The notes beneath the pieces were generated by a model. The model ran no database searches, was not told the DNA's origin, and saw only the letters and a list, made by a program, of their open reading frames with translations. 64,000 nt of DNA from Thermoanaerobaculia bacterium (GTDB lineage: Bacteria > Acidobacteriota > Thermoanaerobaculia > Multivoradales > JAHEKO01): assembly GCA_947259925.1 (NCBI GenBank), contig CAMYOG010000026.1, positions 24,196 through 88,195 on the forward strand, in the 5' to 3' direction. Below, one piece after another: positions 6,188 to 21,470 of the stretch. The first letter of the stretch is position 1. Every line of letters begins with the position of its first letter. The position numbers and the translations under genes are program-made.

Positions 6188-6216
6188 TTGTAACATCGTT
6201 GCCATACGCTGGCCAT
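6188..6216 (+). promoter_or_regulatory. Candidate Pho box (three 7-mers at 11-bp period)
   Basis: TTGTAAC-atcg-TTGCCAT-acgc-TGGCCAT resembles the PhoB CTGTCAT-N4 repeat; lies upstream of pstS. Confidence 0.5.
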
Positions 6217-6384
6217 GGGAGAGCGGCACGCTGGTCTTCGCCCACTGGAACGGGTGGGAGAGGCAACCGTGCGCTGGCGTGTACGGCCGGGAGGAAGCGG
6301 CTGCTACGTTTCAGCCATCGGGAGTGAAGACCCGGCACGGGCGTCGACGGGGCGCAGCGTGCTCCAACCAGAAGGAGGCTCGAT

Positions 6385-7266
6385 TTGAGAAACCGACTCG
6401 CACTCGGCGTGGTTGTGCTGTTGGTGCTCGCCTGTGGCAGGCCGTCCGGAGAGCGCGGCGGTCGCGCCCTGATCCAGAACAAGGGCTCGGACACCCTGGT
6501 CAACGTTGCCCAGGCGTGGGCCGAAGCGTACAAGGAAGTGAATCCGAACGTCGGCATCGCGGTCACCGGCGGCGGCTCCGGGACCGGCATCTCGGCGATG
6601 ATCAACGGCACGGTCGATCTTGCCAACGCCAGCCGCAAGATGAAGGACAAGGAGCTCGAGGCGGCTCGCGCCAACGGGATCGAGCCGGTCGAGTTCGTAG
6701 TCGGCTTCGACGCCCTGGCGGTGTTCGTTCATCCCGACAACCCGGTGGAGGGTTTCACGCGGGCGCAGCTGGCGGAGATCTACGGTGAGGGAGGCTCGGT
6801 CGAGGGCTGGGATCAGCTCGGCCTGGCGATACCCGGCTGCGACAGCAACGAGATCGTCCGGGTCAGTCGGCAGAACAACTCCGGCACCTACGTCTACTTC
6901 CAGGAAGCGGTGCTGGGCAAGGAGCGCGACTTCAAGCTGGGCTCGCGCGACATGCACGGCTCCAAGGACGTGGTCGATCTGGTCGAGAACACCCCGTGCG
7001 CGATCGGCTACAGCGGACTCGCCTACGCCAACGAGCACGTGAAGATGCCGTGCGTCTCGACCAGCGACAACGGCACCTGCGTCTTCCCGTCCTCGGAGAC
7101 CGCCATCGACGGCAGCTATCCCATCGCCCGGCCGCTGCTCATGTACAGTGCCGGCCAGCCTCAGGGGATCGTGAAGGTGTACCTGGACTGGATTCTGAGC
7201 GACGCCGCGCAGTGCATCATTCAGGACAAGGGTTACGCGCCCGTACGGGCGGTGAGCTGCGGCTGA
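6385..7266 (+). CDS. pstS: Phosphate ABC transporter substrate-binding lipoprotein PstS
   Basis: TTG start after AGGAGG; lipobox LVLAC; KGSDT, GGGSGTGI, ANASR, SRQNNSGT, YPIARPL. Confidence 0.92.
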   Translation: MRNRLALGVVVLLVLACGRPSGERGGRALIQNKGSDTLVNVAQAWAEAYKEVNPNVGIAVTGGGSGTGISAMINGTVDLANASRKMKDKELEAARANGIEPVEFVVGFDALAVFVHPDNPVEGFTRAQLAEIYGEGGSVEGWDQLGLAIPGCDSNEIVRVSRQNNSGTYVYFQEAVLGKERDFKLGSRDMHGSKDVVDLVENTPCAIGYSGLAYANEHVKMPCVSTSDNGTCVFPSSETAIDGSYPIARPLLMYSAGQPQGIVKVYLDWILSDAAQCIIQDKGYAPVRAVSCG

Positions 7267-7347
7267 TGTGAAAGTGCCAACCTTGGGCCGGCGGTCGGCC
7301 GGGTGGCGGTCGCCAGCCGGTCCTCGAGCAGCAGGCAGGAGAGGCCG

Positions 7348-8439
7348 ATGAGTCACTACGAAGAGCGCCTGGAACAGGATCTGAACACGATTCGGAGCCG
7401 TGTTCGCGAGGTCGGCAAGCAGATCGAGACCGCGCTCGAGCGCGCCGTGCACGCACTGCTGACCCACAACACGGCGTTGGCTGCCGAGGTCGTTCTGGGC
7501 GACCTCCCGATCAACCGGGAGGTGCGCGCCATAGACGCTCTCTGCCACGCGTTCGTCGCACGCCACCTGCCGAGTGCCGGTCACCTTCGGTTCGTCTCGT
7601 CGGTCCTGCGGCTGAACATCGAGCTCGAGCGGATCGGCGACTATGCCGTCGCGATCGCGCGCGAGGTGCAGCAGCTCTCTCAAGCTCCTCCCGATACCGT
7701 GCTGCGTGACATCGACCTGATCGCGGACCAGGCCAAGCTGATCCTCCACCAGGCGCTCCAGGCGTTCGACGAATCGAACGCCGACATGGCCCGGGCGACG
7801 AAGGCCATGGGCAAGCAGGTCGAGAGCACGTTCCAGAACGTCCTCTCCGATCTGCTGGACGAGGGCGAGAAGAGAGAACGGCCGCTGATGGACCTCTTCG
7901 CTCTGTTGGTGGTGATCAACCGGCTCGGGCGGGTCAGCGACCAGGCGAAGAACCTGTGTGAAGAGACGATCTTCGCGGTGACCGGCGAAACCAAGGAGCC
8001 CAAGATCTACCGGCTGCTGTTCGTCGACGAGACCAACGACTGCTACAGCCAGATGGCCGAGGCGTTCGCGCGCAAGGTCTTCCCCGAAAGCGGCCGCTAC
8101 GCGAGCGCCGGTTGGCAGCCGGTGGACGCCCTCCATCCGGGCTGCGCGCGGTTTCTCGACCGGAACGGGCTCGACGCGAGCGATCTGGCGCCGAGTCTCT
8201 TCGACCTGCCGACCGAGGAGTTGGCCGACTATCACGTGGTCGTCAACCTCGAGCACGGAGAGGAGCCGAAACTGCCCCCGATCCCGTTCCATACGGTGCT
8301 CCTCAACTGGGACGTCGGGCCCTCTCCGGCCGGACTCGACCAGCAGCGGGCGGACGCCCTGATCGAGGAGGCCTACAAGGAGATCTCGACCCGGGTTCGC
8401 GATCTCATGGAGCAGCTGCGCGGCGAGGGGGCCGGCTAG
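7348..8439 (+). CDS. phoU: PhoU fused to C-terminal LMW-PTP/ArsC-like domain with degenerate active site
   Basis: PhoU motifs ELERIGDYA, LGRVSDQAKNLCE; then LLFVDETNDCYSQMAEAF..ASAG matching the LMW-PTP LFVCxxNxCRSQMAEA pattern. Confidence 0.88.
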   Translation: MSHYEERLEQDLNTIRSRVREVGKQIETALERAVHALLTHNTALAAEVVLGDLPINREVRAIDALCHAFVARHLPSAGHLRFVSSVLRLNIELERIGDYAVAIAREVQQLSQAPPDTVLRDIDLIADQAKLILHQALQAFDESNADMARATKAMGKQVESTFQNVLSDLLDEGEKRERPLMDLFALLVVINRLGRVSDQAKNLCEETIFAVTGETKEPKIYRLLFVDETNDCYSQMAEAFARKVFPESGRYASAGWQPVDALHPGCARFLDRNGLDASDLAPSLFDLPTEELADYHVVVNLEHGEEPKLPPIPFHTVLLNWDVGPSPAGLDQQRADALIEEAYKEISTRVRDLMEQLRGEGAG

Positions 8440-9362
8440 TGCCGCAAGCCTCGCCTCGAGGCGGCGACGCGATCGATCGCCGCAACCTGGACTGGTACAT
8501 CGACAAGGGTGTCCAGGTCCTGGTCTTCATCGGCGGCGTGTCGGGCATCCTGTTCGTGATCAGCATCTTCGTGTTTATCACCAAGGAAGGCCTCGGGTTC
8601 CTCACCGAGCAGTTCAGCATCGGCGAGTTCTTCGGCTCGCCGCGCTGGGCCCCGACGTCGAGCCACAACCCGACCTACGGCGCCCTGGCCCTGATCGCCG
8701 GAACGGCGAGCGTGACCGGGCTGGCGATGGTCATCGCGGTTCCGTTCTCGCTGGGAGCCGCCATCTTCATCGGTGAGTTCGCGACCGGCAAGCCGCGCGA
8801 GTATCTGAAGGTCCTGGTCGAGCTTCTCGCCGCGATCCCTTCGGTGGTCTGGGGGTTTATCGGCCTGAGCATCATGAACCCCCTGATCATCAAGCTGTTC
8901 AATGTCCCGGTCGGGCTGAACGTGCTCAACTCGGGCTTCATTCTCGGCCTGATGGCGGCGCCGATCATGACCACCATCGCCGAAGACGCCCTCAAGGCGG
9001 TTCCGGATACCTATCGCGAAGCGGCGGAGGCGCTGGGTGCCACCCGCTGGCAGGTCATCCTCAGGGTGGTCATCCCGGCGGCCAAGCCCGGGCTGCTCGC
9101 CGCCGTGCTCCTGGGCGTCGGCAGGGGCTTCGGCGAGACCATGGCGGTCTTGATGGCGAGCGGCCACTCGATCAACCTGCCGACCAGCGTCTTCGACTCG
9201 GTGCGTGCGCTGACCGCGACCATCGCCGCCGAGCTGGGTGAGACGGCGGTCGGCTCCGATCACTACCGCGCCCTGTTCACCCTCGGCATCTTCCTCTTCG
9301 TCGTCACGTTCGTCATCAATTTGACCGCCGACCTAGTCGTCCGCGGGATCCGCAGGAAGTAG
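8439..9362 (+). CDS. pstC: Phosphate ABC transporter permease PstC
   Basis: ELLAAIPSVVWG, EAAEALGATRW, GRGFGETMAV; GTG overlaps phoU stop. Confidence 0.93.
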   Translation: MPQASPRGGDAIDRRNLDWYIDKGVQVLVFIGGVSGILFVISIFVFITKEGLGFLTEQFSIGEFFGSPRWAPTSSHNPTYGALALIAGTASVTGLAMVIAVPFSLGAAIFIGEFATGKPREYLKVLVELLAAIPSVVWGFIGLSIMNPLIIKLFNVPVGLNVLNSGFILGLMAAPIMTTIAEDALKAVPDTYREAAEALGATRWQVILRVVIPAAKPGLLAAVLLGVGRGFGETMAVLMASGHSINLPTSVFDSVRALTATIAAELGETAVGSDHYRALFTLGIFLFVVTFVINLTADLVVRGIRRK

Positions 9363-9366
9363 AGCC

Positions 9367-10236
9367 ATGTTCGAAGCCTCGGATCTCAACGAGAGGAATC
9401 GGCGGGTCGAGCGCCTGTGGCGCCTGCTCTTCCTGGTGATGACCGTGCTCCTGATCGTGCCGGTCGTCGTCATCCTGTCGGTCCTGATCCACAAGGGCGG
9501 CCCGGTCTTGTCGATCGATTTCCTCTTTACCGAGCCGGTCCAGGGGATGACGGCGGGCGGGATCTTTCCGGCTCTGGTCGGCACCGTCTGGCTGGTCACG
9601 GTCGCGCTGCTGGCGTCCGTCCCGATCGGCGTCGCCGCGGCTCTGTACCTGAGCGAGTACGCCCCCGACAACTGGCTCACCCGCGCCATCAACCTGGCGA
9701 TCATCAACCTCGCGGGCGTGCCGTCGATCGTCCACGCCCTCTTCGGCGTCGGCGCGTTCGTCCTCTTCTTCAGGTTCGGCACCAGCATCCTGGCGGCGAG
9801 CCTCACCCTCGCGATCATGACCCTGCCAGTGGTGATCGTCGCCACGCGCGAGTCGCTCCAGGCCGTGCCACAGGCATTCCGCGAGGCCTGCTGGAACATG
9901 GGCGCGACCCGCTGGCAGACCATCCGTCGCGTGGTCCTTCCCAACTCGATCAGCGGGATTCTGACCGGAGTGATCCTGGAGGTCTCGCGCACCGCTGGCG
10001 AGACCGCCCCGATCATGTTCACCGGTGCCGCGTTCTTCCTACCCTTTCTTCCGCAGAGCGTCTACGACCAGACCATGGCGATGTCGCTCCATCTGTTCGT
10101 CATTTCGACGCAGGTCCCCGGCGTTCCCGAGGCGTTGCCGTTCGGGGTCGCGCTGGTGCTGATCTCCATGGTCCTGGCGATGAACGCCATCTCGATCGCC
10201 TTCCGCATGCATCTGCGAAGTAAGAAGAAGTGGTAG
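9367..10236 (+). CDS. pstA: Phosphate ABC transporter permease PstA
   Basis: YLSEYA, NLAGVPSIV, GATRWQTI, SRTAGETAP. Confidence 0.93.
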   Translation: MFEASDLNERNRRVERLWRLLFLVMTVLLIVPVVVILSVLIHKGGPVLSIDFLFTEPVQGMTAGGIFPALVGTVWLVTVALLASVPIGVAAALYLSEYAPDNWLTRAINLAIINLAGVPSIVHALFGVGAFVLFFRFGTSILAASLTLAIMTLPVVIVATRESLQAVPQAFREACWNMGATRWQTIRRVVLPNSISGILTGVILEVSRTAGETAPIMFTGAAFFLPFLPQSVYDQTMAMSLHLFVISTQVPGVPEALPFGVALVLISMVLAMNAISIAFRMHLRSKKKW

Positions 10237-11006
10237 CCGCCGAGCCCCAGGCACGACCCCTGCTGGAAGTTCGGGATCTTGCGATCCGCTATGGCGACAC
10301 GCTCGCCCTCAGCGGCGTCACCCTCGAGGTCCAGAAGCACGAGATCTTCGGCATCATCGGTCCCGCCGGGAGCGGCAAGACCTCCTTTCTCCGCACTCTC
10401 AATCGGATGGACCAGTTCACGCCGTCGATGTCGGTGGACGGTGAGATCCGCTTCAACGGCCGCGACATTCGCCGCTGGCGCAACGTCTACTCGCTCCGCC
10501 GCAAGATCGGAGTCGTATTCCCGCTGCCAGTCGGCCTGCCGCTGAGCGTCTACGACAACGTCGCTCTCTCGCCTCGGCTGGGCGGCATCAAGAAGAAGGC
10601 CGATCTCGACGTGATCGTCGAGCGCTGCCTGCGCCGAGCCGCCCTCTGGGACGAGGTCAAGGACCGGCTCGACTCGCTGGGGAGTCTCCTGTCGGGTGGT
10701 CAACAGCAGCGTCTGACCATCGCCCGGGCGCTCTCCCAGGGCCCGGAGCTCCTGCTGCTCGACGAGTTCTCGATCGCGGTCGACCCGGTGACCACCATGC
10801 GGATCGAGGACGTGCTCAAGGAGCTGCGCCAGGAGATCACCATCGTCCTGGTCACCAACCTGGTGCAGCAGGCGCGCCGGCTGGCCGACCGGACCGCCTT
10901 CTTCCTGACCGGCGAGTGCGTCGAGATCGCCGAGACCGAGCGCATGTTCACCCGTGAGGTTCAGGACGAGCGCACGCGTGACTACGTGGAGGGTCGGTTT
11001 GGCTAG
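10230..11006 (+). CDS. pstB: PstB-like ABC ATPase 1 (intact signature; degenerate Q-loop, D-loop and H-switch)
   Basis: GPAGSGKT, LNRM, LSGGQQQRL, LLLDEFSIAVD, VTNLVQQARR, TRDYVEGRFG. Confidence 0.88.
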   Translation: MVAAEPQARPLLEVRDLAIRYGDTLALSGVTLEVQKHEIFGIIGPAGSGKTSFLRTLNRMDQFTPSMSVDGEIRFNGRDIRRWRNVYSLRRKIGVVFPLPVGLPLSVYDNVALSPRLGGIKKKADLDVIVERCLRRAALWDEVKDRLDSLGSLLSGGQQQRLTIARALSQGPELLLLDEFSIAVDPVTTMRIEDVLKELRQEITIVLVTNLVQQARRLADRTAFFLTGECVEIAETERMFTREVQDERTRDYVEGRFG

Positions 11007-11784
11007 CGCCGAGGCCGTCTCCGACATCGCGATCGAGACCCGGCAGGTCAACCTCTGGTACGGGACGTTCCAGGCGCTGTTCGACGTCGATCTCCAGATC
11101 CCGCGCGGCAGGATCACCTCGATGATCGGCCCGTCGGGGTGCGGTAAGACAACTTTCTTGCGCAGCGTGAATCGGATCAACGAACGGCTCGGCTATGTGC
11201 GCACGACCGGCTCGATCGAGGTGCTGGGCTACGACATCTACGCACCTGACGTCGAGCTGGTGCAGGTGCGCAAGCGGATCGGTATGGTCTTCCAGCGGCC
11301 GAACCCACTCCCTCTTTCAATCCGCGACAATGTGGTGTTCGGCTATCGGGTCCATTCGGGTCGCAGGAAGATCCCGCAAACGGAGCTGGACGAGCTGGTC
11401 GAGTCGGCGCTCCGTCAAGTGCTCTTGTGGGACACGGTGAAGGACCGCCTGGACCGGCAGGCTACCGAGCTGTCGCTCGAGGAGCAGCAGAAGCTGTGCA
11501 TCGCCCGCCTCCTGCCGGTGAAGCCGGCTGTGCTCCTGATGGACGAGCCGTGCTCGGCTCTCGACCCGAAGGGCACCGAGGCGGTCGAGGAGTTGATTTG
11601 GCAGCTCAGGGGCGACTACACGATCCTCATTGTGACGCACAACATGGCGCAGGCGCGGCGAGCGAGCGAAGAATGTATCTTCATGTTGCTGGGCAAGGTC
11701 GTCGAGCACGCTCCGACCGACGAGATCTTCGTGACCCCGCGCAACCAGGAGACCGCCGACTACATCGAGGGCCGCTACGGGTAG
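10999..11784 (+). CDS. pstB: PstB-like ABC ATPase 2 (degenerate signature LSLEEQQ)
   Basis: GPSGCGKT, GMVFQRPNP, LLMDEPCSALDP, VTHNMAQA, DYIEGRYG; TTG start after GGAGG. Confidence 0.9.
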   Translation: MASAEAVSDIAIETRQVNLWYGTFQALFDVDLQIPRGRITSMIGPSGCGKTTFLRSVNRINERLGYVRTTGSIEVLGYDIYAPDVELVQVRKRIGMVFQRPNPLPLSIRDNVVFGYRVHSGRRKIPQTELDELVESALRQVLLWDTVKDRLDRQATELSLEEQQKLCIARLLPVKPAVLLMDEPCSALDPKGTEAVEELIWQLRGDYTILIVTHNMAQARRASEECIFMLLGKVVEHAPTDEIFVTPRNQETADYIEGRYG

Positions 11785-11830
11785 AGTCGATCACGATGCC
11801 TACGTCGAGGGCTGGCCGAGGGAGGGGCGC

Positions 11831-12226
11831 ATGACCGAACCCAGACTGACCGACGTTCCTGGCGTGGGAGAGGCGACCGCGAAGGCCCTCGCCGCGGTGG
11901 GGATCGGTAACGCCGGCGATCTGGCCCGGGCCTCGACGGCCACGTTGACGGCGGTGCGGGGGCTCGGTCCCTCGAGAGCCGCCTCGATTCGAACGGCTGC
12001 CCGCTCGCTCCTCGAGACCGACTCGGACGGGTCCCACCCCGGACTCGACACGGTCCCAAGCAAGAAGAAGAAGAGAGACAAGAAGAAGGACAAGAAAAAG
12101 GACAAGCGGAAGCGCAAGAAGAAGCGCAAGGACAAGCGAAAGAAGAAGGACAAGAAGGGCGGGAAAGGCAAGAAGGACAAGAAGCGAGGCAAGGGAAAGA
12201 AGAAGAGGAAGAAGAACAAGAAGTAG
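11831..12226 (+). CDS. Helix-hairpin-helix protein with poly-Lys/Arg C-terminal tail
   Basis: Two HhH motifs (LTDVPGVGEATA, LTAVRGLGPSRA); last 54 aa contain 42 K/R; GGAGG SD. Confidence 0.85.
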   Translation: MTEPRLTDVPGVGEATAKALAAVGIGNAGDLARASTATLTAVRGLGPSRAASIRTAARSLLETDSDGSHPGLDTVPSKKKKRDKKKDKKKDKRKRKKKRKDKRKKKDKKGGKGKKDKKRGKGKKKRKKNKK

Positions 12227-12247
12227 CGATTCGCGCTACCCTACGGC

Positions 12248-13024
12248 ATGCTCGAAGCGCTCGATCTCAGCAAGAGCCTGGCCAAATCGGTCTACAAGCA
12301 GCAGCTACCCGCCCTCCAGATGCGGCTGCATCGCCTCCAGAGAGCGTGCTGGGAGGCGAAGGTGGCGACGGTGGTCGTCTTCGAAGGCTGGGATGCCGCC
12401 GGCAAGGGCACCACGATCCGCAAGCTCACCCAGCGCCTGGAGCCACGTGGCTTCTCCCTCTACGCCATCCAGGAGCCGAGGACGTTCGAGCGGCAGCTGC
12501 CCTGGATGTGGCGCTTCTGGGTCAACCTGCCGGAATGGGGAGAGATCGCTATCTTCGACCGCAGCTGGTACGGCCGGGTCTTGATCGAGCGCGTCGAGGC
12601 TCTGACCGAGGAAGAGCACTGGCGCAAGGCCTACGGAGACATCGTCTCCTTCGAGCGGGGCCTGGCGGACGACCGGTACCTAATCATCAAGTTCTTCTTC
12701 CACATCTCCAGGGAGGAGCAAGAGGCGCGCTTCCAGCAGCTCGAGAGCGACCCAGCGACCGCCTGGCAGGTCGAGCCGGAGGACTGGGAGCATCACCGGA
12801 ACTACGACCAGTACCTGGTCGCCATCGAGGAGATGCTCGAGCGCTCGGAGAGCGAGTGGGGGCCGTGGACGCTGGTCGAGGCGACCGACCACAGATGGGC
12901 TCGGGTCAAGGTGTTCGAGAAGCTCATCCAGCGGATGGAGGCGGGGCTGACCCACCACGGCTTGGCCGTGCCCGAGCCGCTGGAGGCCGAGCTGTTCTCG
13001 AGCGAGGAGGAGGACGAGGATTAG
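12248..13024 (+). CDS. ppk2: Polyphosphate kinase 2 family protein (copy A, acidic tail)
   Basis: VFEGWDAAGKG, LEPRG, WRFW, FDRSWYGRVLIERV, KFFFHIS. Confidence 0.9.
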   Translation: MLEALDLSKSLAKSVYKQQLPALQMRLHRLQRACWEAKVATVVVFEGWDAAGKGTTIRKLTQRLEPRGFSLYAIQEPRTFERQLPWMWRFWVNLPEWGEIAIFDRSWYGRVLIERVEALTEEEHWRKAYGDIVSFERGLADDRYLIIKFFFHISREEQEARFQQLESDPATAWQVEPEDWEHHRNYDQYLVAIEEMLERSESEWGPWTLVEATDHRWARVKVFEKLIQRMEAGLTHHGLAVPEPLEAELFSSEEEDED

Positions 13025-13025
13025 G

Positions 13026-13739: not shown

Positions 13740-13841
13740 GTCGCTTGTCGGCCCCCGCGATCAACGGGCCCGGTCGATTCGTCGTGCTACAGTTTTTTAC
13801 TCTCGCATGAGCTCTCCCCTGCCGATCGGCTCACCGCGGCC

Positions 13842-16322
13842 ATGACAGGCAAGCACGAAGCTCCCAGCACCAGCGACGACAAGGGCCGGCGGCGGCAGCT
13901 CATGGTGGTCTGCACCGGAGGCCTCCGGCAGCGCTTCCTGCGCGGAATGATCACCCGAGACCTGGTGCTGCGCGGCCTCGGTTTCGAGGACGCCTACGCC
14001 GTGGCGCGGGCGATTCGGGACGAGCTCTCAGACCGCGAGGAGGTGACGACCGACGAGATCCAGGATCTCATCTCCGCCCGGTTGGAGATGATGTTCGGCA
14101 GCGACATCCCGGATCGGCTCACCTTCCCCGGTCGGCCTCTCTCGGAGATCCGTGTCGTCTACGAGGGGCAGGAGCAGCCGTTCTCACGCGGCCTGCTCGC
14201 CCGCAGCGTCTATGCGGCGGGCATCGATCTGGACCGTGCCTACGGACTGCTGACCGAGCTCGAAGCCGAGCTTCGCCAGGAGGGGGTCGACCGGCTGGCC
14301 TCGGGCGAGATAGCCCGCCGGGTCGCCGATCTGTTGGAGCGCAAGGAGGGACCGGAAGCGGCTCGGCGATACCGTACCGTGCGCCGGATCGGTCGGCTGG
14401 CGAAGCCTCTGATCATCTACATCGGCGGTGCCAGCGGCACCGGCAAGTCGACCCTGGCGCTCGAGCTCGCACCGCTCCTCCGGATCTACCGGATCAACGC
14501 CACCGACACCATCCGCCAGGTCATGCGAATGGTCTTCACGCCGTCGATCTTGCCGGCTATTCACACCTCCAGCTTCGAGGTCGCGCACCTTCCCGAGCCC
14601 GCCTCCGGCCCGCCCGGCCCGACGAGGCCCGGTGATCCGGACTTCGGCTCCCGGGTCATTCAGAGCTACGAGGAGCAGACCATCCGGGTGATCGTCGGGA
14701 TCCGGGCGGTCGTCGAGCGCGCGATCGCCGAGAACCTGAGCCTGATCGTCGAAGGGGTGCATGTCCATCCGGGGCTGGTACCGTTCGCGGACTTGCAGGG
14801 CTCGGCCCACCAGGTCGCTCTGGTCCTCGCGACCCTGCACGAGGAGGACCACCGGGCGCGCTTCCTCGCCCGGTCGCGCGCCGGTGGCCGCAAGGCGGAG
14901 CGCTATCTAGAGAGCTTCGGGGCGATCCGCGAGATCCACGATCACATCCTGCAGGAGGCGGAGCGGCGTGAGGTGCCGCTCCTGGACAACCCGGCGGGAG
15001 AGTCCCCGGTCGGACCTACTCTGGGCCTGATCACCAGCATGCTGGAGCACACGACGCCCAGCCTCGGCCTGGGCGAATGGCCCGACCTGGCCCCCTCGGC
15101 CGCGACGCTGCTGCTGATCGTCGACGGGTTGGCCGATCGGCCGATCCGCGCACTCGGTGGACGGACGCCGCTGCAGGCCGCCGACACGCCGACGCTCGAC
15201 CGACTGGCGAAGGATGGCCAGTGCGGCCTGGCCGATCCGATCGCCCCGGGCGTGGTCGCCGACACCGCCGCGGGCTGTCTGGCACTCTTCGGACAGTCGC
15301 CGATGAGTCTCAAGCGGGGTCCGACCGAAGCGCTCGGAGCGAGCCTGCCGATGAGTCCCGGAGATGTCGCGCTGCGCGGCAACTTCGCCACCCTCGGCGA
15401 GAACGGGCAGATCATCGACCGCCGGGCCGGCCGGATCCGCGAAGGGGCCGCGGAACTGGCCGCAGCGATCGACCATCTGGCCCTGCCCGGCGGCCTCTCG
15501 CGCGAGGTCGAGGTCCGCGTGCGGGCGGGAACCGAGCACCGCCTGGGCGTCGTTCTCCGGGGCACCACCCTCTCACCCGCCATCCAGGGCAGCGACCCGG
15601 GCGAGGGAGCGCTGCCCAGCCCACCCCTGGTTCCGCGACCGGACGACCCCGATGACGCCCTGGCGGTCTACACCGCCAACGTCCTGGCGGTGTTCGAGCA
15701 GGAGGCTCGACGGGTGCTGGCGAATCACAAGATCAATCGCAAGCGCAAGAAGGACGGGCTCCCCCAGGCCAACGCCGTCCTGACCCGTGGTGCCGGGCGG
15801 ATCCACAGCCTGCTGCCGCTCGAGGAGGCGGGCGTTCCCCTACGGGTCTGCTGTATCAGCGGCGATCAGACCGTGTTGGGACTGGCCCGCTGGTCGGGAG
15901 CCAGGACCCGAACCACTCCGGAGATGACCGCCAACCTCGACACCGATCTGCGGCAGAAATTCGACATCGCCCGCGAGGAGCTCGAGCGGAGCGACCTGGT
16001 GCTGCTGCACGTCAAGGGAGCCGATATCGCCGCCCACGACCAGCGCCCCGACCTCAAGGCGTCGTTCATCGAGCAGATAGACAAGAACCTGAATCGCATG
16101 TTGAAGCGCGTCACCGGGCCGGTACGCATCGCGGTCGCGTCGGATCACGCCACCCTCTCGGAGAGCGGTCAGCACGCCGCCGATCCGCTGCCAGTCTTGA
16201 TCTGGGGAGAGGGCGTCGAGGCCGACGAGATCGAGACCTTCGACGAGCAGTCGGCCGGCGGCGGCAAGCTCGAGCGGTTTCCGCTCCAACTGCTGCTCAG
16301 CCGGCTCTACCGGCTCTCCTGA
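13842..16322 (+). CDS. Fusion: two ATP-cones + 2-phosphoglycerate kinase + ApgM-type (alkaline phosphatase superfamily) phosphoglycerate mutase
   Basis: ATP-cone-like repeats (FLRGMITRDL..AYAVA; PFSRGLLARS..AYGLL); 2PGK motifs GGASGTGKST, TDTIRQVMR, IHTSSF, VEGVH; ApgM motifs IVDGLADRP, TPLQAADTP, ALRGNFAT, DRRAGRI, HVKGADIAAHD, ASDHAT, HAADP. Confidence 0.85.
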   Translation: MTGKHEAPSTSDDKGRRRQLMVVCTGGLRQRFLRGMITRDLVLRGLGFEDAYAVARAIRDELSDREEVTTDEIQDLISARLEMMFGSDIPDRLTFPGRPLSEIRVVYEGQEQPFSRGLLARSVYAAGIDLDRAYGLLTELEAELRQEGVDRLASGEIARRVADLLERKEGPEAARRYRTVRRIGRLAKPLIIYIGGASGTGKSTLALELAPLLRIYRINATDTIRQVMRMVFTPSILPAIHTSSFEVAHLPEPASGPPGPTRPGDPDFGSRVIQSYEEQTIRVIVGIRAVVERAIAENLSLIVEGVHVHPGLVPFADLQGSAHQVALVLATLHEEDHRARFLARSRAGGRKAERYLESFGAIREIHDHILQEAERREVPLLDNPAGESPVGPTLGLITSMLEHTTPSLGLGEWPDLAPSAATLLLIVDGLADRPIRALGGRTPLQAADTPTLDRLAKDGQCGLADPIAPGVVADTAAGCLALFGQSPMSLKRGPTEALGASLPMSPGDVALRGNFATLGENGQIIDRRAGRIREGAAELAAAIDHLALPGGLSREVEVRVRAGTEHRLGVVLRGTTLSPAIQGSDPGEGALPSPPLVPRPDDPDDALAVYTANVLAVFEQEARRVLANHKINRKRKKDGLPQANAVLTRGAGRIHSLLPLEEAGVPLRVCCISGDQTVLGLARWSGARTRTTPEMTANLDTDLRQKFDIAREELERSDLVLLHVKGADIAAHDQRPDLKASFIEQIDKNLNRMLKRVTGPVRIAVASDHATLSESGQHAADPLPVLIWGEGVEADEIETFDEQSAGGGKLERFPLQLLLSRLYRLS

Positions 16323-16834
16323 GCAGCCCCGCCGCGCGCAAAGCGCGCCAGCGTCTTCGGCGTGCACAGCCACACCAGGGTACCGATCCCGAACTTGGCT
16401 TCCGACCACCGATCGATCGGTAGGTCGACGCGCGCTGTGGCCGCAGTGACCATCCTGACCTCGGCACAGCCGATCAGCCGCCCCACGCTCTCGGACCAGA
16501 CCGGTTCGTGACCGGCCAGCATCAGCCGTTCGATCGCGTCGTCCGCACCCTGGACAGCAGTCAGCAGCTCCTCGGGAGAGCCACCGTAGAGGCGATCGAC
16601 GACCTCGACGTCGCACGACCAGCTCCCCGCGTCGGCTGCGAGCTCGACCGTCGAGCGAGCTCGCACCGCCGGCGAGGTGAAGACCGCGTCCGGAGCCTGA
16701 CCGATCGCCCCCAGGAATCTACCGATGGTCGCCGCGGCCCGGCGCCCGCGCGGGGCGAGCCGTCGCTCGCGGTCGCTCGCGAACTCGCCCGACCAGTCGG
16801 ATTTGGCGTGTCTCAGGAGGTAGAGGTGTCGCAT
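16307..16834 (-). CDS. sixA: SixA-type phosphohistidine phosphatase
   Basis: LLRHAKSDW, SPAVRA, AGHEP; histidine phosphatase superfamily; 3' end overlaps convergent gene by 16 bp. Confidence 0.88.
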   Translation of the reverse strand: MRHLYLLRHAKSDWSGEFASDRERRLAPRGRRAAATIGRFLGAIGQAPDAVFTSPAVRARSTVELAADAGSWSCDVEVVDRLYGGSPEELLTAVQGADDAIERLMLAGHEPVWSESVGRLIGCAEVRMVTAATARVDLPIDRWSEAKFGIGTLVWLCTPKTLARFARGGAAQESR

Positions 16835-16864
16835 CGATCACTGAGGCGGCGGGACCACCGCCGG

Positions 16865-16890
16865 TATACTAAAGCTTCCAATCGCGGAGG
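16865..16890 (+). promoter_or_regulatory. Putative -10 box (TATACT) and SD (GGAGG) for ppk1
   Basis: TATACT 16865-16870; GGAGG 16886-16890, 5 nt before CTG 16896. Confidence 0.5.
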
Positions 16891-16895
16891 TCACA

Positions 16896-19040
16896 CTGGC
16901 TACACTCGAAGATCGTTCGGCACCGCTCGAAGACCAGGCGCTCGACCTGGGCGACAAGGCGTACTACATCAATCGGGAGCTCAGCTGGCTCGCCTTCAAC
17001 GCGCGCGTTCTGGAGGAAGCCCTCGACGAGGAGAACCCACTCCTCGAGCGCGTCAAGTTCCTGTCGATCTTCAGCAGCAACCTCGACGAGTTCTTCATGA
17101 TCCGGGTGGCGGGGCTGCGCCGGCAGCTCGAGGTCGGCGCCCTCGAGGCACCTCCCGACGGCATGACGCCCGCCGAGCAGCTGGCGGCGATTCGCGAGAC
17201 CCTGATGCCGATGCTCAAGCAGCGGTTCCGCTGTTGGCAGGACGACCTCAAGCCGAAGCTCGAGGAGCAGGGCATCCGGGTGCTCGACTACTCCGACCTC
17301 AAGCGCAAGCAGCGCAAGCTGCTCCGGCGCCACTTCGAGCGCGAGATCTTTCCGGTCCTGACGCCGCTCGCCTTCGACCCCGGGCACCCGTTTCCCCACA
17401 TTTCGAACCTGAGCATCAACCTCGCGGTCGAGATCAACGATCCGGGTCACGGCGAGCGCTTCGCGCGGCTCAAGGTTCCGAACGCCCTCGACCGGCTCCT
17501 GCGCATCCCGAGTGAGGAGAAGGCCGGCCGCTACGAGCATCTCGGTCTGGTCGGACCGAAGAGCAGCCACTTCGTCTGGCTCGAGGAAGTGGTCGCGGCC
17601 AATCTGGACCTGCTGTTCCCCGGGCTCGAGATCGTCACCGCGCATCCGTTCCGCATCACCCGGGACGTCGATCTCGAGATCGAGGAGGACGAAGCGGCCG
17701 ATCTGATCACCACTATGCAGGACTTCGTGGCCCAACGGCACTTCGGCTCGGCGATCCGGCTCGAGGTGGACGCCGGGATGCCGGAGCGCATCCGCTCGAT
17801 TCTGAGTCGGAATCTGCGCCTGTCGCCCTACCAGGTCTACGAGGTGGAGGGCCCCCTCGGTCTTTCGGACATGATGGAGCTGACCAGCATCGATCGTCCG
17901 GAGCTGAAGGACCCGCCCTTCCTGCCGCAGTCGCCGCCCGAGCTCACGGGTGAAGAGAGCATCTTCTCGGTGCTGCGCGACCGCGACGTGCTCCTCTATC
18001 ACCCCTACGACAGCTTCGCTTCGGTGGTCGACCTGATCCGCAAGGCGGCTCGCGATCCGAACGTGGTCGCCATCAAGCAGACGCTCTATCGCACCGGCCC
18101 CAACTCACCGATCGTGAAGGCCCTGCGCGAAGCGCGTGAGCAGGGCAAGCAGGTCGCGGCCATGGTCGAGCTCAAGGCGCGGTTCGACGAGGAGAACAAC
18201 ATCGTCTGGGCTCGGGCTCTGGAAGAGGCTGGCGTCCACGTCGTCTACGGCCTGGTCGGCCTCAAGGTGCACTGCAAGATCTGCCTGGTCGTCCGGCGCG
18301 AGGCCCACGGCATCCAGAGCTACGTTCATCTCGGAACCGGCAACTACAATCCGGTCACGGCACGGCTCTACACCGACCTGGGCTACTTCACCACCGATCC
18401 GGAGCTCGCGGCCGACGTCTCCGACCTGTTCAACGCCCTGACCGGCTACTCGAAGAAGACCCACTATCGCAAGCTGCTGGTTTCACCCCACTCGATGCGC
18501 GAGCAGCTGCTCGAGCGCATCGATCGCGAGATCTCGGCCCATCTGGAGGACGGCCAGGGCCATCTCGCCTTCAAGATGAACTCCCTGGTCGACAAGCGCT
18601 GCATCCGAAAGCTCTACGAGGCGTCGCAAGCCGGCGTCAAGGTCGAGCTGCAGGTCCGTGGCATCTGCTGCCTGCAGCCGGGGGTCAGCGGCGTCAGCGA
18701 CAACATCCGGGTCACTTCTGTAGTCGGCCGGTTCCTCGAGCACTCCCGGATCTACTACTTCCGCAACGGCGGCGACGAGGAGATCCTCCTCGGCAGCGCC
18801 GACCTGATGCCGCGCAACCTCGGCGGCAGGGTCGAGCTCCTGTTCCCGGTGCGCGACCCCGAGCTCCTGGCGTCGCTGCGCGACGACATCCTGTTCCTGC
18901 ACCTGCGCGACAACGTCCGCTCCCGCGAGCTGCAAGCCGATGGCACCTACAAGCGGGTGCAGCCGGCCGGCGGCGAGGAAGTCGTCGACTCGCAGGCGTA
19001 CCGCCTGGAGCATCGCGGCTCCTGGCACCCGGAAGACTAG
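16896..19040 (+). CDS. ppk1: Polyphosphate kinase 1 (CTG start; ORF track start 17097 is internal)
   Basis: In-frame upstream YYINRELSWLAFNARVLEEA..LERVKFLSIFSSNLDEFFMIRVAGL; HPFPHISN, YHPYDSF, IKQTLYR, ELKARFDEENN, KVHCK, GTGNYN, GRFLEHSR, GSADLMPRNL. Confidence 0.95.
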   Translation: MATLEDRSAPLEDQALDLGDKAYYINRELSWLAFNARVLEEALDEENPLLERVKFLSIFSSNLDEFFMIRVAGLRRQLEVGALEAPPDGMTPAEQLAAIRETLMPMLKQRFRCWQDDLKPKLEEQGIRVLDYSDLKRKQRKLLRRHFEREIFPVLTPLAFDPGHPFPHISNLSINLAVEINDPGHGERFARLKVPNALDRLLRIPSEEKAGRYEHLGLVGPKSSHFVWLEEVVAANLDLLFPGLEIVTAHPFRITRDVDLEIEEDEAADLITTMQDFVAQRHFGSAIRLEVDAGMPERIRSILSRNLRLSPYQVYEVEGPLGLSDMMELTSIDRPELKDPPFLPQSPPELTGEESIFSVLRDRDVLLYHPYDSFASVVDLIRKAARDPNVVAIKQTLYRTGPNSPIVKALREAREQGKQVAAMVELKARFDEENNIVWARALEEAGVHVVYGLVGLKVHCKICLVVRREAHGIQSYVHLGTGNYNPVTARLYTDLGYFTTDPELAADVSDLFNALTGYSKKTHYRKLLVSPHSMREQLLERIDREISAHLEDGQGHLAFKMNSLVDKRCIRKLYEASQAGVKVELQVRGICCLQPGVSGVSDNIRVTSVVGRFLEHSRIYYFRNGGDEEILLGSADLMPRNLGGRVELLFPVRDPELLASLRDDILFLHLRDNVRSRELQADGTYKRVQPAGGEEVVDSQAYRLEHRGSWHPED

Positions 19041-19117
19041 CCTGGCCTTCTCACCAGCTTCCTACTGCGCCGCCGTATGTTGGCTCGCTACGAAAGCCGG
19101 CGAGAAGGTCAGGCTAG
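19037..19117. repeat. Short copy of the 2750-2931 palindromic element between convergent stops
   Basis: CTAGCCTGGCCTTCTCACCAGCTTCCTACTGCGC..GCCGGCGAGAAGGTCAGGCTAG; left arm matches reverse complement of the 2898-2930 arm at 32/33 nt. Confidence 0.8.
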
Positions 19118-19863
19118 CCCGCCGGTACCCGCTCGCGAATCTCGGCCCAGAGCTGCTCGTAGGCCTTGGCCGGCGCGCTCCAACTCGCGAATCGGTTCAC
19201 CGGCGCCCGGTTGAGGGCCATCTTCTCGACCAGACTCGAGTAGGGCACCGACGTCTGGAGAAACTCGGGCTGCACTCCGACCCCGGCGGTGATCTCCCGA
19301 TGGAGCTTCTTTCGACAGTCGACCATGCAGAAGAACGGCAGGATCCGCGCGCGGCGGAACCGCCGACGTTTGACCAGGTGGCGCTCGAGCCGGTCGAGCA
19401 TCCGAAGTGACAGGGTGGTCGGTATGGTCGGCACGAGCAGCGCGTCGGCGGCCACGAAGACACTCTCCGACAGCAGCGAGATGCTCGGGGCGCAGTCCAG
19501 AAAGACCTCGTCGTACTCGTCGTCGAGCGCCTGCAGAAGCGACGCCAGCCGCCGTGCCGGCTTTTTCATGTCGGCCAGCGCCAGGTCCAGCTTCCGGTAC
19601 GAGAAGTCGGCCGGAAGCAGGTCGAGGTCCTCGAAATCGGTACCTTTGATCACCGCTTCGAGCCTCCGCCCGCCTTCGAGCAGCTTGCGGGCCCCGCCCT
19701 TGACCTTCGGCTTGACGCGGAACATGAAAGTCGCCGCCCCCTGCGGGTCGAGGTCCCAGAGCAGGGTTCGGCGGCCCTCCCGCGCGGCGAGATAGGCGAG
19801 GTTGGCCGCCGACGACGTCTTACCGACGCCGCCCTTGATGTTGTAGAGCGCCAGAACCCTCAC
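19114..19863 (-). CDS. ParA/MinD-family ATPase (orphan, CHAD-associated)
   Basis: Deviant Walker A YNIKGGVGKT, WDLDPQG, LLPAD, FLDCAPS, VPTIPTTLS. Confidence 0.9.
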   Translation of the reverse strand: MRVLALYNIKGGVGKTSSAANLAYLAAREGRRTLLWDLDPQGAATFMFRVKPKVKGGARKLLEGGRRLEAVIKGTDFEDLDLLPADFSYRKLDLALADMKKPARRLASLLQALDDEYDEVFLDCAPSISLLSESVFVAADALLVPTIPTTLSLRMLDRLERHLVKRRRFRRARILPFFCMVDCRKKLHREITAGVGVQPEFLQTSVPYSSLVEKMALNRAPVNRFASWSAPAKAYEQLWAEIRERVPAG

Positions 19864-21443
19864 TCGCTCCCCCCGTCCACGAACATCACTCGGAATCGTT
19901 CGACGGTCTTGGCGGAGCTGAACTTCCCGAACGCTTCGGCGAACCTGCTGCGCTCTCGCGCCTCACCCTGTTCGAGCTCACCGACGAGCCGTCCCAGGGC
20001 CATCACCGCCGTGGTCCCTCCCGAGTCCGCGTCGATCAGCTCCTCGGCCAGGCCAACCAGCATCCGCTTCTGGATTCCGTAGTCGTTGAAGGCGCCCAGA
20101 TTGTCCTGCAGTCGCTTGAGTGCCCGCACCGGGCGATCGATCTCCTCCGGCGGGTAGAGCGTCCGGAACAGCTCGAGGGCGTAGCGGAGCTTCTTACAGT
20201 CGATCCGCAGACGATGAAGATCCTCCGGCGGACTGTCGTCGCTGATCTTCCGGCCCCGCTTCAGCACCTTGCGATGGGCTTTCCGGATCAGGCGGCTCGC
20301 AACCGTACCGATCGGCTCCCTGGCCGCCTCGGGTCGTTCTTCGTCGGCCGGCGGATGTTCCAGGAACGCGCGCCAGGCCTCGATCAGCTCTCGATACCGG
20401 GCGCTCTCGAGCTCTGTCGCCATCCGGCGCTGCGCGCCCTGCTGTCTCGCCTCCAAGAGCTCGCGCAATGGCTCCAGGTCCCGACGGACCGACTCGGCCA
20501 GCTTTGCCGTCGACCCCGGTAGCTCGAGCAGGTAGACGTCGAGATCACGAGTCGGACCGGTCAGCTTACCGAGCCACGAGAACTCCCGGCGGAGAGGCTC
20601 GATCCGTGCCTCCGGCCAGAGCTTCCTGGTCAGACTGAGCGCCGAGCGCGTACGTCGCACCGCTACCCGGAAGTCATGGAGAAATTCGCTGTCCAGGTCG
20701 GCCACAGTGCCGGCGTGGTTCTTTTCGATCGCCCCGAGCAGGGCCCTCAACACCTGGCGGACCGCCTCGTCGGCAGGTGTCGCGACATCGAGCGGTACGT
20801 TCGGCTTCGAAGTGTACTCACCCGCTCGCCCGAAACCCCCCAGGGCCGAGCCCGCCTCGAACTCGTCCGCGTCCCACTCCTCGAGGCCGAGCTCCTTTCC
20901 CAGGAACCGGACCAGCTTGCGGAAGTCGTCCGGGTAGCCCCGGACTCCTCTGACAATCAGGATCGGGGCGAGCGGCCTCCTCCGCTGCCGCGATCCCGGA
21001 GCCCGAGCGGCGGGAACTTCCGCGACCAGACGCACGACGGTCTTGCGGCGGCGGTCGAGAACCCGTAGAAGCCGTCCTTCGGCCTTCACCTCCACGATCG
21101 GCAGCAGGCGACGCATCGTGATGACCGACGCGAGCTTCTGCCGGAAGGGGCTCGCCGGCAGGTCGGCCGCAAACCCGATCGTCTGGAGGTCGTCGGAGCG
21201 GAGATCCAGGCGCTCGGCCCGCGCCCGGCCTTCCGACTGCCATCTCAACTGAGGCCCGCTGGCCGAGGGCTGCAGCCAGAGTCGCGACTTCCTACGCCAC
21301 AGGCGCCAGTCGAAGGTGTCGAAGTAGGTTCGCTGCCGCACCGCCTTCTCGCTCTCGAGGGCGTACCGATCGCCGAGCGCCTCGACCACACGGTCGAGAC
21401 CGGCTTCGTCGGCGACGGTGAAGGCGACCTCGGTCTGGACCAT
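19860..21443 (-). CDS. CHAD-domain polyphosphate-binding protein with N-terminal CYTH-like region
   Basis: TYFDTFDWRL; CHAD motifs EFLHDFRVAVRRTRS, TGPTRDLDV, LHRLRIDCKKLRYALE, LQDNLGAFND. Confidence 0.9.
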   Translation of the reverse strand: MVQTEVAFTVADEAGLDRVVEALGDRYALESEKAVRQRTYFDTFDWRLWRRKSRLWLQPSASGPQLRWQSEGRARAERLDLRSDDLQTIGFAADLPASPFRQKLASVITMRRLLPIVEVKAEGRLLRVLDRRRKTVVRLVAEVPAARAPGSRQRRRPLAPILIVRGVRGYPDDFRKLVRFLGKELGLEEWDADEFEAGSALGGFGRAGEYTSKPNVPLDVATPADEAVRQVLRALLGAIEKNHAGTVADLDSEFLHDFRVAVRRTRSALSLTRKLWPEARIEPLRREFSWLGKLTGPTRDLDVYLLELPGSTAKLAESVRRDLEPLRELLEARQQGAQRRMATELESARYRELIEAWRAFLEHPPADEERPEAAREPIGTVASRLIRKAHRKVLKRGRKISDDSPPEDLHRLRIDCKKLRYALELFRTLYPPEEIDRPVRALKRLQDNLGAFNDYGIQKRMLVGLAEELIDADSGGTTAVMALGRLVGELEQGEARERSRFAEAFGKFSSAKTVERFRVMFVDGGSE

Positions 21444-21470
21444 GGCGCGCCAGTATAGCCACCGGCACCG

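Follow-up and report, generated by a model that had tools for sequence, protein, structure and literature searches.

The DNA considered here is a stretch of 64,000 nucleotides, hereafter the window, from the genome of a Thermoanaerobaculia bacterium of the Acidobacteriota (assembly GCA_947259925.1, contig CAMYOG010000026.1, positions 24,196 to 88,195). Between positions 6188 and 21443 it contains an island of genes for phosphate uptake and for the metabolism of polyphosphate (polyP): pstS, a phoU fusion gene, pstC, pstA, two pstB genes, a gene for a small lysine-tailed DNA-binding protein (HhH-polyK), two ppk2 genes, a gene that fuses 2-phosphoglycerate kinase with an ApgM mutase (2PGK-ApgM), a sixA-like gene, ppk1, parA and a CHAD gene. 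An earlier note, made from the letters alone, had given this gene order and had taken the whole for a candidate polyP organelle system; searches with Pfam and NCBIfam profiles confirm every gene of the order. The island is nonetheless a set of separable modules, namely an uptake operon, polyP enzymes, a SixA-like phosphatase with the 2PGK-ApgM fusion, and a conserved CHAD-ParA cassette, and most of them (pstSCAB, PPK1 and the two PPK2) are ordinary. Our subject is the cassette, which we read as a previously undescribed ParA-type system that would act on polyP granules. Its two genes are the following:

19114-19863, minus strand: ParA-family ATPase of a CHAD-linked clade, 249 amino acids (PF13614/PF01656)
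19860-21443, minus strand: pseudo-TTM + CHAD protein, 527 amino acids (PF05235 CHAD at residues 231-462, E 2.3e-62)

Relatives of this ParA were collected by a back-translated motif search of species-representative genomes, which gave more than 564 matches; the best 80 loci, in which the protein is 54-78% identical to that of the window, were analyzed. According to the titles of their records they belong to Acidobacteriota/Thermoanaerobaculia, Gamma- and Betaproteobacteria, a 'Deltaproteobacteria' metagenome-assembled genome (MAG), Actinomycetota, Chloroflexia and Dormiibacterota. By tblastn, 77 of the 80 loci have a CHAD gene immediately ahead of ParA and in the same orientation, the misses being L008 (the same as genome G093), L060 and L026, in the last of which ParA sits at the start of the contig. 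The CHAD stop and the ParA start overlap by 4 bp in 51 of the 74 measurable loci, as they do in the window, and by 1 bp in 10 more. When open reading frames (ORFs) within 6 kb were clustered, two families alone proved common, ParA in 79 loci and CHAD in 75, and the rest were lineage-specific; CHAD is the one family conserved as a neighbor of ParA in the 80 loci. Because only these two families are common to nearly all of the loci, the cassette of CHAD and ParA, and not the whole island, is the core unit. Genes for ppk1, ppk2, pst or sixA stand near the cassette in a minority of related loci.

Two further samples, independent and evenly drawn, of 301 genomes each, gave a similar picture. In the Acidobacteriota sample, 17 genomes have this ParA (E ≤ 1e-45) and 181 have a CHAD domain; 14 of the 17 have the two genes side by side, and the other three (G093, G256 and G065) have them apart. 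In the sample from the class of Methylomonas lenta (Gammaproteobacteria), ParA was found in 45 genomes, and CHAD is directly upstream in 28 of the 30 best loci (misses L199 and L207). Certain genomes within these counts are flagged unpublished (G152, G049 and G024 among the 181, G444 among the 45, and G049 again among the 38 with the 2PGK-ApgM matches described below); G444 is the source of L199, one miss of the 28 of 30 count, and G551 is flagged limited; nothing beyond these counts depends on the unpublished genomes. Kin are not independent, and locus counts such as these describe spread and are not statistics. For ParA, the contention of the earlier note that the unusual members of the island keep company with polyP-related genes elsewhere is upheld in all three collections. 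Cultured carriers of the cassette include Paracoccus marcusii, P. aestuarii and Methylomonas lenta. The annotated order in Paracoccus is CHAD, AAA family ATPase, CYTH, NUDIX, and in P. marcusii this run comes directly after pstCAB-phoU-phoB.

The ATPase has the distinguishing features of the ParA/MinD family, that is, the signature lysine of the Walker A motif and the aspartates of motif 2 and Walker B. All of the 48 sequences compared have the deviant Walker A sequence KGGVGKT (K10-T16, with K10, K15 and T16) and the residues D37, D39 and D123, and the protein looks like an intact, catalytically competent ATPase. Its closest solved structures in a profile search are Myxococcus xanthus ParA (8ray, E 7e-34) and Thermus thermophilus Soj (1wcv). 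R184 is also invariant and aligns with the arginine of 'YDGR' in T. thermophilus Soj, an arginine that we take to bind DNA. The genome has four other ParA paralogues, which are about 30% identical to that of the window; judged by sequence comparison, the CHAD-linked ParA forms a distinct clade. Pfam found neither a ParB nor a ribbon-helix-helix (RHH) domain in ParA's neighbors, PPK1 and the CHAD protein, and inspection by eye alone revealed no obvious MinD-like membrane anchor at the ParA C-terminus.

The CHAD protein, whose gene is the sole CHAD gene of the genome, is a member of its family both by profile (211.4 bits against a cut-off of 25.6) and by helical fold. Its AlphaFold2 model, built from an alignment of 48 orthologues, has a mean predicted local distance difference test score (pLDDT) of 94.6 and a predicted template-modeling score (pTM) of 0.91. 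Residues from about 225 to 527 superpose in Foldseek on the Chlorobium tepidum CHAD protein crystallized with polyP (6qva; TMt 0.92, root-mean-square deviation 2.0, 38% identity). The earlier note had recognized this gene but had missed what precedes the CHAD domain: the first 205 or so residues adopt the TTM/CYTH tunnel fold seen in YgiF and SaTTM, at 10-16% identity, with matches to 2gfg, 7ns8 and 5a60 (probability 1.00, TMt 0.36-0.69). The Pfam CYTH profile (PF01928) does not match residues 1-224 even at E ≤ 10. TTM/CYTH enzymes have an N-terminal catalytic motif, ExExK, of which the corresponding positions 5, 7 and 9 vary among the 48 sequences; because these positions are not conserved, we take the domain to be catalytically dead. 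As for the other half of the protein, CHAD domains bind polyP and localize to its granules, according to passages of two papers (PMC6537752, PMC9239181).

A complex of the CHAD protein with ATP, Mg and one ParA chain was modeled from a 48-row alignment for each protein. The ipSAE values were 0.73, 0.73 and 0.74, as against 0.00, 0.00 and 0.01 for three controls; at least 83% of the contacts were common to the runs, and the pLDDT of the partner was at least 87. Our structure searches with ParA and the CHAD protein as queries list no complex in which ParA is joined to a TTM or a CHAD protein, and to our knowledge none has been solved, so that recall of a solved structure by the predictor seems unlikely. 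The predicted contacts lie on the TTM domain (residues 61-62, 75, 78, 127, 132-135, 138 and 167-170) and, in ParA, at residues 28-30, 32, 49-51, 72-76, 78, 81 and 219. Y81 and E82 of M. xanthus ParA, compared with a view to its known ParB pocket, align with R59 and K60 here, near but not within the predicted contacts. In the CHAD protein K134, G169 and an arginine or lysine at 168 are kept in 48 of 48 sequences, Y170 in 47, and T135 and R138 in 45 each; the peripheral contacts 61-62, 75, 78, 127 and 132-133 vary. In ParA, G30, R49, D76, D81 and R219 are invariant, and K73 is counted with them among the family-wide residues of the interface.

These conserved contact residues accompany ParA. Our comparison set consisted of 17 long, high-scoring TTM-CHAD proteins (frames of at least 510 amino acids) from acidobacterial genomes without this ParA, other eligible ones, among them those of G264, G283, G102, G078, G055 and G002, being left out. 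K134 and Y170 occur in none of the 17 by BLASTP columns, a weak comparison inasmuch as 10 of them have no alignment over the first 200 residues of the window protein. An alignment-free count covers this gap: [RK]GY occurs within the first 300 residues of 47 of the 48 ParA-linked proteins and in none of the 17 ParA-less ones, and the composite motif KT..R...[RK]GY in 42 of 48 and none of 17. Four further linked proteins (two from Paracoccus, one from metagenome locus L096 and one from G020) all have [RK]GY. On the other side of the interface, the Paracoccus ParA has the same residues R49, G74, D76 and R219, as do the fusion proteins described next apart from a few substitutions at 74; the four paralogues of the genome do not share them. 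The TTM-ParA interface is a confident prediction, built from residues that co-occur with ParA.

When 1.84 billion representative proteins were searched with ParA, 441 clusters matched at E ≤ 1e-30, and the best 150 of these all score at least 190 bits. Many of these 150 are 494-561 amino acids long, and ten long representatives were scanned for domains. Five of the ten are fusions of ParA with CYTH (P0004, P0005, P0012, P0029 and P0108), and some such fusions keep ExExK; three others (P0021, P0049 and P0006, the last of 388 amino acids) have an extension without a domain match, which in P0021 and P0049 looks CYTH-like by alignment or by eye. P0045 is an observation apart, in that its ParA is fused to S6PP, a HAD domain of sucrose-6-phosphate-phosphohydrolase type, instead of CYTH. 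A 710-residue candidate, P0141, with an apparent order of TTM (doubtful), CHAD and ParA, was rejected as a probable frameshift artefact because its truncated CHAD match is followed by garbled sequence. The CYTH part retrieved 36 metagenome loci, three of which hold ParA: in L088 a CHAD gene is immediately followed by the P0005 fusion, in L096 the genes run TTM-CHAD, ParA, CYTH, and L087 has ParA+CYTH with no CHAD within 8 kb. In other metagenome loci the same type of CYTH adjoins CHAD, SixA or PPK1. Such varied arrangements indicate that the ParA, CYTH/TTM and CHAD domains travel together.

We propose, with a probability of roughly 0.6, that the CHAD-ParA cassette is a cargo system of the ParA/MinD type for polyP granules. 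In outline, the CHAD domain would coat the granule by binding polyP, a property established for CHAD domains, and the degenerate N-terminal TTM domain is predicted to bind ParA. Dimers of ATP-bound ParA would bind the nucleoid, as the behavior of the ParA family and the conserved arginine suggest, and contact with the granule-bound adaptor would trigger ATP hydrolysis. The outcome would be granules spaced and inherited by a diffusion ratchet, as plasmids and carboxysomes are. A more ambitious version holds that the pseudo-TTM-CHAD protein and ParA form a dedicated, ATP-driven partition machine for polyP granules, the first for this organelle, with the dead TTM domain as an adaptor that activates ParA. 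In this version the cassette has reached six or more phyla by descent and transfer, and in some lineages HhH-polyK, a histone H1-like protein or an RHH protein with a lysine tail was recruited as a third, tethering part; to the whole of it we give even odds.

Several points weigh against this proposal. About one in ten ParA orthologues lacks an adjoining CHAD gene (L008/G093, L060, G256, G065, L207, L199 and L087). Where the two are apart, the motif is missing from the CHAD protein of G065 and the TTM domain from that of G256; in G093, ParA and CHAD lie 1.2 Mb apart, yet the CHAD protein keeps K134, T135 and RGY. Most genomes with CHAD do not have such a ParA (181 as compared with 17 of 301 in Acidobacteriota), and hence the system cannot be a general means of granule placement. 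The putative binding of DNA by ParA is deduced from one aligned arginine and from data on Soj. The calibration of the prediction tool, in which 58 of 80 solved complexes and 2 of 110 mismatched pairs attained the mark reached here, applies only roughly to a model made with a ParA monomer, alignments of our own and riding ligands. The ParA-CYTH fusions could mean intramolecular regulation and not the tethering of a cargo. Finally, in Synechococcus elongatus the spacing of polyP is reported, in the portion of a 2026 study at hand (PMC13556221), to be independent of ParA-family proteins.

The main rival is a regulatory switch, in which the ParA-like ATPase, instead of being a positioning motor, would regulate polyP metabolism or binding in a nucleotide-dependent way; it might gate the access of TTM/CHAD to polyP, or control the activity of PPK1 or of CYTH. 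The fusions that hold ParA and CYTH in one chain, some of them with ExExK, speak for such a switch, and the extra CYTH and NUDIX genes after ParA in Paracoccus, the phosphatase fusion P0045 and the position of predicted contacts R49-K51, which flank the D37-L-D39 motif, all point the same way. Against this, ParA keeps both the full deviant Walker A motif and the arginine aligned with the DNA-binding arginine of Soj, and members of the ParA/MinD family are known to act by surface patterning. Furthermore, the linked TTM domain has lost ExExK, so that it offers no obvious enzyme activity for ParA to regulate. On balance we consider a regulatory switch unlikely.

Alternatively, the island might be an ordinary Pho-regulon cluster in which ParA, HhH-polyK and 2PGK-ApgM are neighbors by chance. 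Outside the CHAD-ParA pair the surroundings do vary by lineage, 18 of the 29 other acidobacterial loci with 2PGK-ApgM have no queried polyP or pst gene closer to it than 1.5 kb, and HhH-polyK homologues occur in just 6 of the 80 loci. For ParA, however, chance is excluded by the adjacency to CHAD across phyla (77 of 80 and 28 of 30 loci) and by the co-occurrence of the motif; for the other two genes it must contend with the fact that every HhH-polyK homologue found lies in a polyP/Pho island, in two phyla, and with the order of SixA followed by the fusion, divergent from PPK1, in 8 of the 29 loci. As an account of the island as a whole, chance association seems to us very improbable. Weaker still is the notion of a DNA partition system, in which ParA would segregate a replicon and CHAD would bind DNA as a polyanion in ParB's stead: the closest solved relatives are indeed chromosomal ParA/Soj (8ray, 1wcv), the Paracoccus gene is publicly annotated as 'chromosome segregation' and eight plasmid or chromid records carry this ParA, but these eight are all the matches in 72,556 plasmid records (E ≤ 1e-40), the cassette adjoins ppk1 in the window and has polyP or phosphate genes nearby in some relatives, neither neighbor has a ParB domain (Pfam), the helical domain of the partner matches a polyP-bound CHAD crystal structure, and the genome has four other ParA paralogues.

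The proposed cargo system has evident likenesses to known ones. In McdA/McdB, as in our cassette, a small ParA-type ATPase gene adjoins the gene of an adaptor, and a membrane-less cargo other than DNA is positioned on the nucleoid (described in parts of PMC13052382 and PMC13556221). Here polyP granules would be the cargo instead, the place of McdB would be taken by an unrelated adaptor, a folded pseudo-TTM + CHAD protein, and McdA itself (6noo, E 6.5e-12) is much farther from the window's ParA than is the Soj-type 8ray. With ParABS and ParFG the cassette has in common the deviant Walker A ATPase and an invariant arginine aligned to Soj's DNA-binding one; it differs from them in having no ParB or ParG gene, and in a predicted contact made through a folded beta-barrel, whereas the known partners, in the part of a preprint that we could consult (10.1101/2025.03.14.642875), use an N-terminal peptide. 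AlgP of Pseudomonas aeruginosa is a polycationic, histone H1-like DNA-binding protein that affects the spacing of polyP granules (from sections of PMC9239181), and a review lists it without a known ATPase (PMC13052382, Table 1). The same TTM-then-CHAD architecture is found in E. coli YgiF, in other TTM-CHAD proteins and in the phosins such as PptA (Foldseek 5a60, 6qva and 6rn5). The protein described here differs from them in a TTM domain that escapes the Pfam CYTH profile and has no conserved ExExK, and in the surface motif KT..R...[RK]GY, found only in the ParA-linked members among the proteins compared.

The nearest precedent is the folD-ppk-parA-CHAD cluster of Acidithiobacillus, for which an adjacency of ppk, parA and CYTH-CHAD, highly conserved in the genus, has been drawn (PMC10892726, PMC6416229). 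In the text and legends of these papers, which do not include the supplementary figures, the ParA is labeled a plasmid or chromosome partition protein and is assigned no role; the comparison stays within the genus and offers neither an interaction model nor a link to granule positioning. In the literature searched, only these two papers mention a CHAD domain as well as ParA and polyphosphate. That literature, which does not extend to subscription journals and supplements, yielded no proposal of a granule system made of CHAD and ParA. The accessible text of a review of ParA/MinD proteins (PMC11407121) has no mention of 'polyphosphate' or 'CHAD', and a polyP ParA is not among the systems named in the sections seen of reviews on ParA/MinD and on organelle positioning. 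A 2025 review gives 'AlgP/?' as the spacing factor of polyP granules, and 'Unknown' for ATP dependence, in its Table 1 (PMC13052382), and the 2026 study describes, in the excerpt available, the mechanism of polyP localization as undefined in E. coli, Caulobacter and Synechococcus (PMC13556221).

The cassette may be the missing energy-driven machine that places polyP granules in the cell. It is, at any rate, a concrete candidate for granule placement, a conserved operon whose products have a predicted interface of named residues, and it is open to study in the cultured species of Paracoccus and Methylomonas named above. Were the proposal true, some of the CHAD 'phosins', whose deletion phenotypes are reported to be weak, would gain a function, and the fold of a TTM enzyme would turn out to have been reused as an adaptor for ParA.

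The remainder of the island contains the following features:

about 6188-6220, no strand assigned: Pho-box-like threefold direct repeat of 11 bp upstream of pstS, read directly
6385-7266, plus strand: pstS, phosphate-binding protein (PF12849 PBP_like_2, E 3.5e-39)
7303-8439, plus strand: fusion of PhoU with a degenerate low-molecular-weight (LMW) phosphatase/ArsC-like domain (TIGR02135, PF01451)
8439-9362, plus strand: pstC permease (PF00528); start inferred, GTG 8439 overlapping the stop of the phoU fusion
9367-10236, plus strand: pstA permease (PF00528)
10230-11006, plus strand: pstB1 ATPase (best NCBIfam match TIGR00972 PstB, 285.9 bits, below the cut-off of 343.2)
10954-11784, plus strand: pstB2 ATPase (TIGR00972 PstB, 323.4 bits, below the cut-off of 343.2)
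11831-12226, plus strand: HhH-polyK, an (HhH)2 DNA-binding domain with a lysine-rich tail of about 55 amino acids (PF14520 HHH_5 at residues 5-58)
12248-13024, plus strand: PPK2a, single-domain (PF03976, E 1.4e-69, 234.6 bits against a cut-off of 22.3)
13026-13739, plus strand: PPK2b, single-domain (PF03976, E 9.3e-89, 297.4 bits against a cut-off of 22.3)
13842-16322, plus strand: fusion of ATP-cone, 2-phosphoglycerate kinase and ApgM mutase, 826 amino acids (PF03477, PF10143, PF01676)
16307-16834, minus strand: SixA-like histidine phosphatase (PF00300 His_Phos_1, over cut-off)
16896-19040, plus strand: PPK1, with four PPK1 Pfam domains; CTG is the probable start, and the ORF defined by ATG starts at 17097

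The assembly that holds the window (contig C26 in our numbering) comprises 4.72 Mb in 60 contigs and is 92% complete, and the G+C content of the window is about 63-71%. The earlier note had also remarked on the absence of a ppx exopolyphosphatase, and correctly so, the profile search giving no Ppx-GppA match in the window and a sole match in the genome, on contig C5. Beyond the window the genome has two more PPK2 and two more pstS-like genes. A consensus scan for promoters and terminators stayed at chance level (1 promoter-like site for a mean of 1.2, 7 terminator-like sites for 6.2). A search of sequencing runs with positions 17000-21500 listed no RNA run, and one DNA run that contains 0.06 of the words sampled. 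The island is flanked upstream (3495-6146) by a Ser/Thr kinase with TPR repeats and downstream (21471-23281) by PilX_N and N-methyl pseudopilin-like genes; in neither flank was a link to the phosphate genes seen.

HhH-polyK was among the members that the earlier note expected to be syntenic with polyP genes, and for this protein the expectation holds within limits. A search of the 80 loci with a hidden Markov model found homologues in L005, L006, L007, L010, L048 and L069 (four acidobacterial, two gammaproteobacterial), always within a polyP/Pho island, and one more adjoins ParA in 1 of the 30 gammaproteobacterial loci; the association is real but limited to these lineages. The homologues have the (HhH)2 domain followed by a tail rich in K, G and D. 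A word-based homologue search with the HhH domain returned nothing beyond the query itself, and ORFs as rich in lysine as HhH-polyK number five in the 4.72-Mb genome. In this lineage the protein may add a passive tether of DNA to polyP, comparable to AlgP in its two-part logic. The tail is nevertheless rich in K, D, G and R and free of the KPAA repeats that characterize AlgP (again from sections of PMC9239181), and the DNA-binding part is an (HhH)2 domain, unlike that of AlgP.

Other small basic proteins were observed at the cassette. In L024 (7956-8156) and L064 (8000-8200), of Methylococcaceae/Methylomonas, a K/A-rich, histone H1-like ORF of 66 amino acids stands just upstream of CHAD-ParA. 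On the Paracoccus plasmids L152 (5299-5487) and L153 (5288-5476) an ORF of 62 amino acids overlaps the CHAD start; by eye it is an RHH domain with a lysine-rich N-terminal tail, reminiscent of partners of the ParG type, and phmmer found no homologue of it in the 80 loci. HhH-polyK, the H1-like and the RHH proteins would be optional and non-homologous polycationic DNA-binding partners.

Membership of PPK1 and PPK2 in their families is clear, all profiles scoring over their cut-offs. The earlier note was right about the ppk1 gene, whose start, however, probably lies ahead of ATG 17097. The N-domain of PPK1 is encoded upstream of this codon, in a frame without ATG, GTG or TTG (16845-17099), and the arrangement GGAGGT-N5-CTG, with the CTG at 16896, is kept in the relative L003, which makes CTG 16896 the probable start; L006 and L123 use ATG. 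As an aside, the best NCBIfam match of both PPK2a and PPK2b is to the C-terminal catalytic half of the two-domain polyphosphate:AMP phosphotransferase (TIGR03708), and the tandem pair is kept in L004, L006, L007, L010, L043 and L058 and in the gammaproteobacterial loci L196, L203 and L204.

The 2PGK-ApgM fusion scores below the cut-offs of NF003259 (265 of 343), TIGR00306 apgM (319.8 of 320) and NF003104 (353 of 489), as does the SixA-like gene with TIGR00249 sixA (47.7, cut-off 74.5). Of the 90%-identity clusters that match the fusion, the 120 listed are all at least 62% identical. Matches also occur in 38 of the 301 acidobacterial genomes. In G015, G012 and G136 the 2PGK and ApgM parts are split but adjoining. 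The earlier note's tie between this enzyme and polyP genes is confirmed for a part of the 29 other acidobacterial loci, that is, for the 8 in which it stands beside SixA and PPK1 and for 2 in which it adjoins pstB, and not for the remainder, which include L146, where only a weak, 24% identical pstS-like match is nearby. In L123-L126, L129, L133, L136 and L137 the SixA-like gene is directly upstream of the fusion on the same strand, divergent from PPK1; the window differs in that SixA and the fusion are convergent, with 3' ends that overlap by 16 bp. Our best guess is that the fusion makes 2,3-bisphosphoglycerate from 3-phosphoglycerate and that the SixA-like enzyme belongs to the same branch.

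The Pho-box-like repeat that the earlier note placed ahead of the island is present as three copies of 11 bp, TTGTAACATCG TTGCCATACGC TGGCCATGG, read directly from the sequence. TGTAAC repeats of a similar kind lie upstream of pstS in L058, L019 and L048. The threefold repeat is a putative binding site of PhoB, and the operon of pstS, the phoU fusion, pstC, pstA and both pstB genes is probably under Pho control. A search for the PhoB family in the genome gave OmpR-type matches only, all below cut-off, one of which adjoins a second pst-phoU cluster on contig C37.

By profile the uptake genes form a PstSCAB-PhoU system of binding protein, two permeases, PstB ATPases and PhoU. Both pstB genes match PF00005; the TIGR00972 match of pstB2 begins at residue 27, and its true start is probably later. 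The tandem pstB pair also occurs in L006, L007, L010, L019, L048 and L058. The PhoU part of the fusion scores 135 bits with TIGR02135 phoU_full (cut-off 130.25), and PF01451 LMWPc covers residues 239-337 (25.7, cut-off 23.2). The P-loop of LMW phosphotyrosine phosphatases and ArsC has the motif CX5R(S/T). In all six homologues of the fusion, which come from two phyla (the window, L007, L010, L019, L048 and L058), it reads D-E-x-N-x-x-x-S, without the cysteine nucleophile and the arginine. To judge from these residues, the LMWPc domain is probably a binding or sensing domain and not a phosphatase, and the fusion looks like a conserved pseudo-phosphatase on a phosphate-signaling protein. The pst genes of the window are 62-82% identical (71-82% for pstC and pstA alone) to those of the gammaproteobacterial MAGs L019, L048 and L058; either the island moves between phyla or contigs have been mis-binned. 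CHAD-ParA and the PhoU fusion are found in all three MAGs too, a PPK2 pair in L058, and an ApgM-like gene in L019 and L058.

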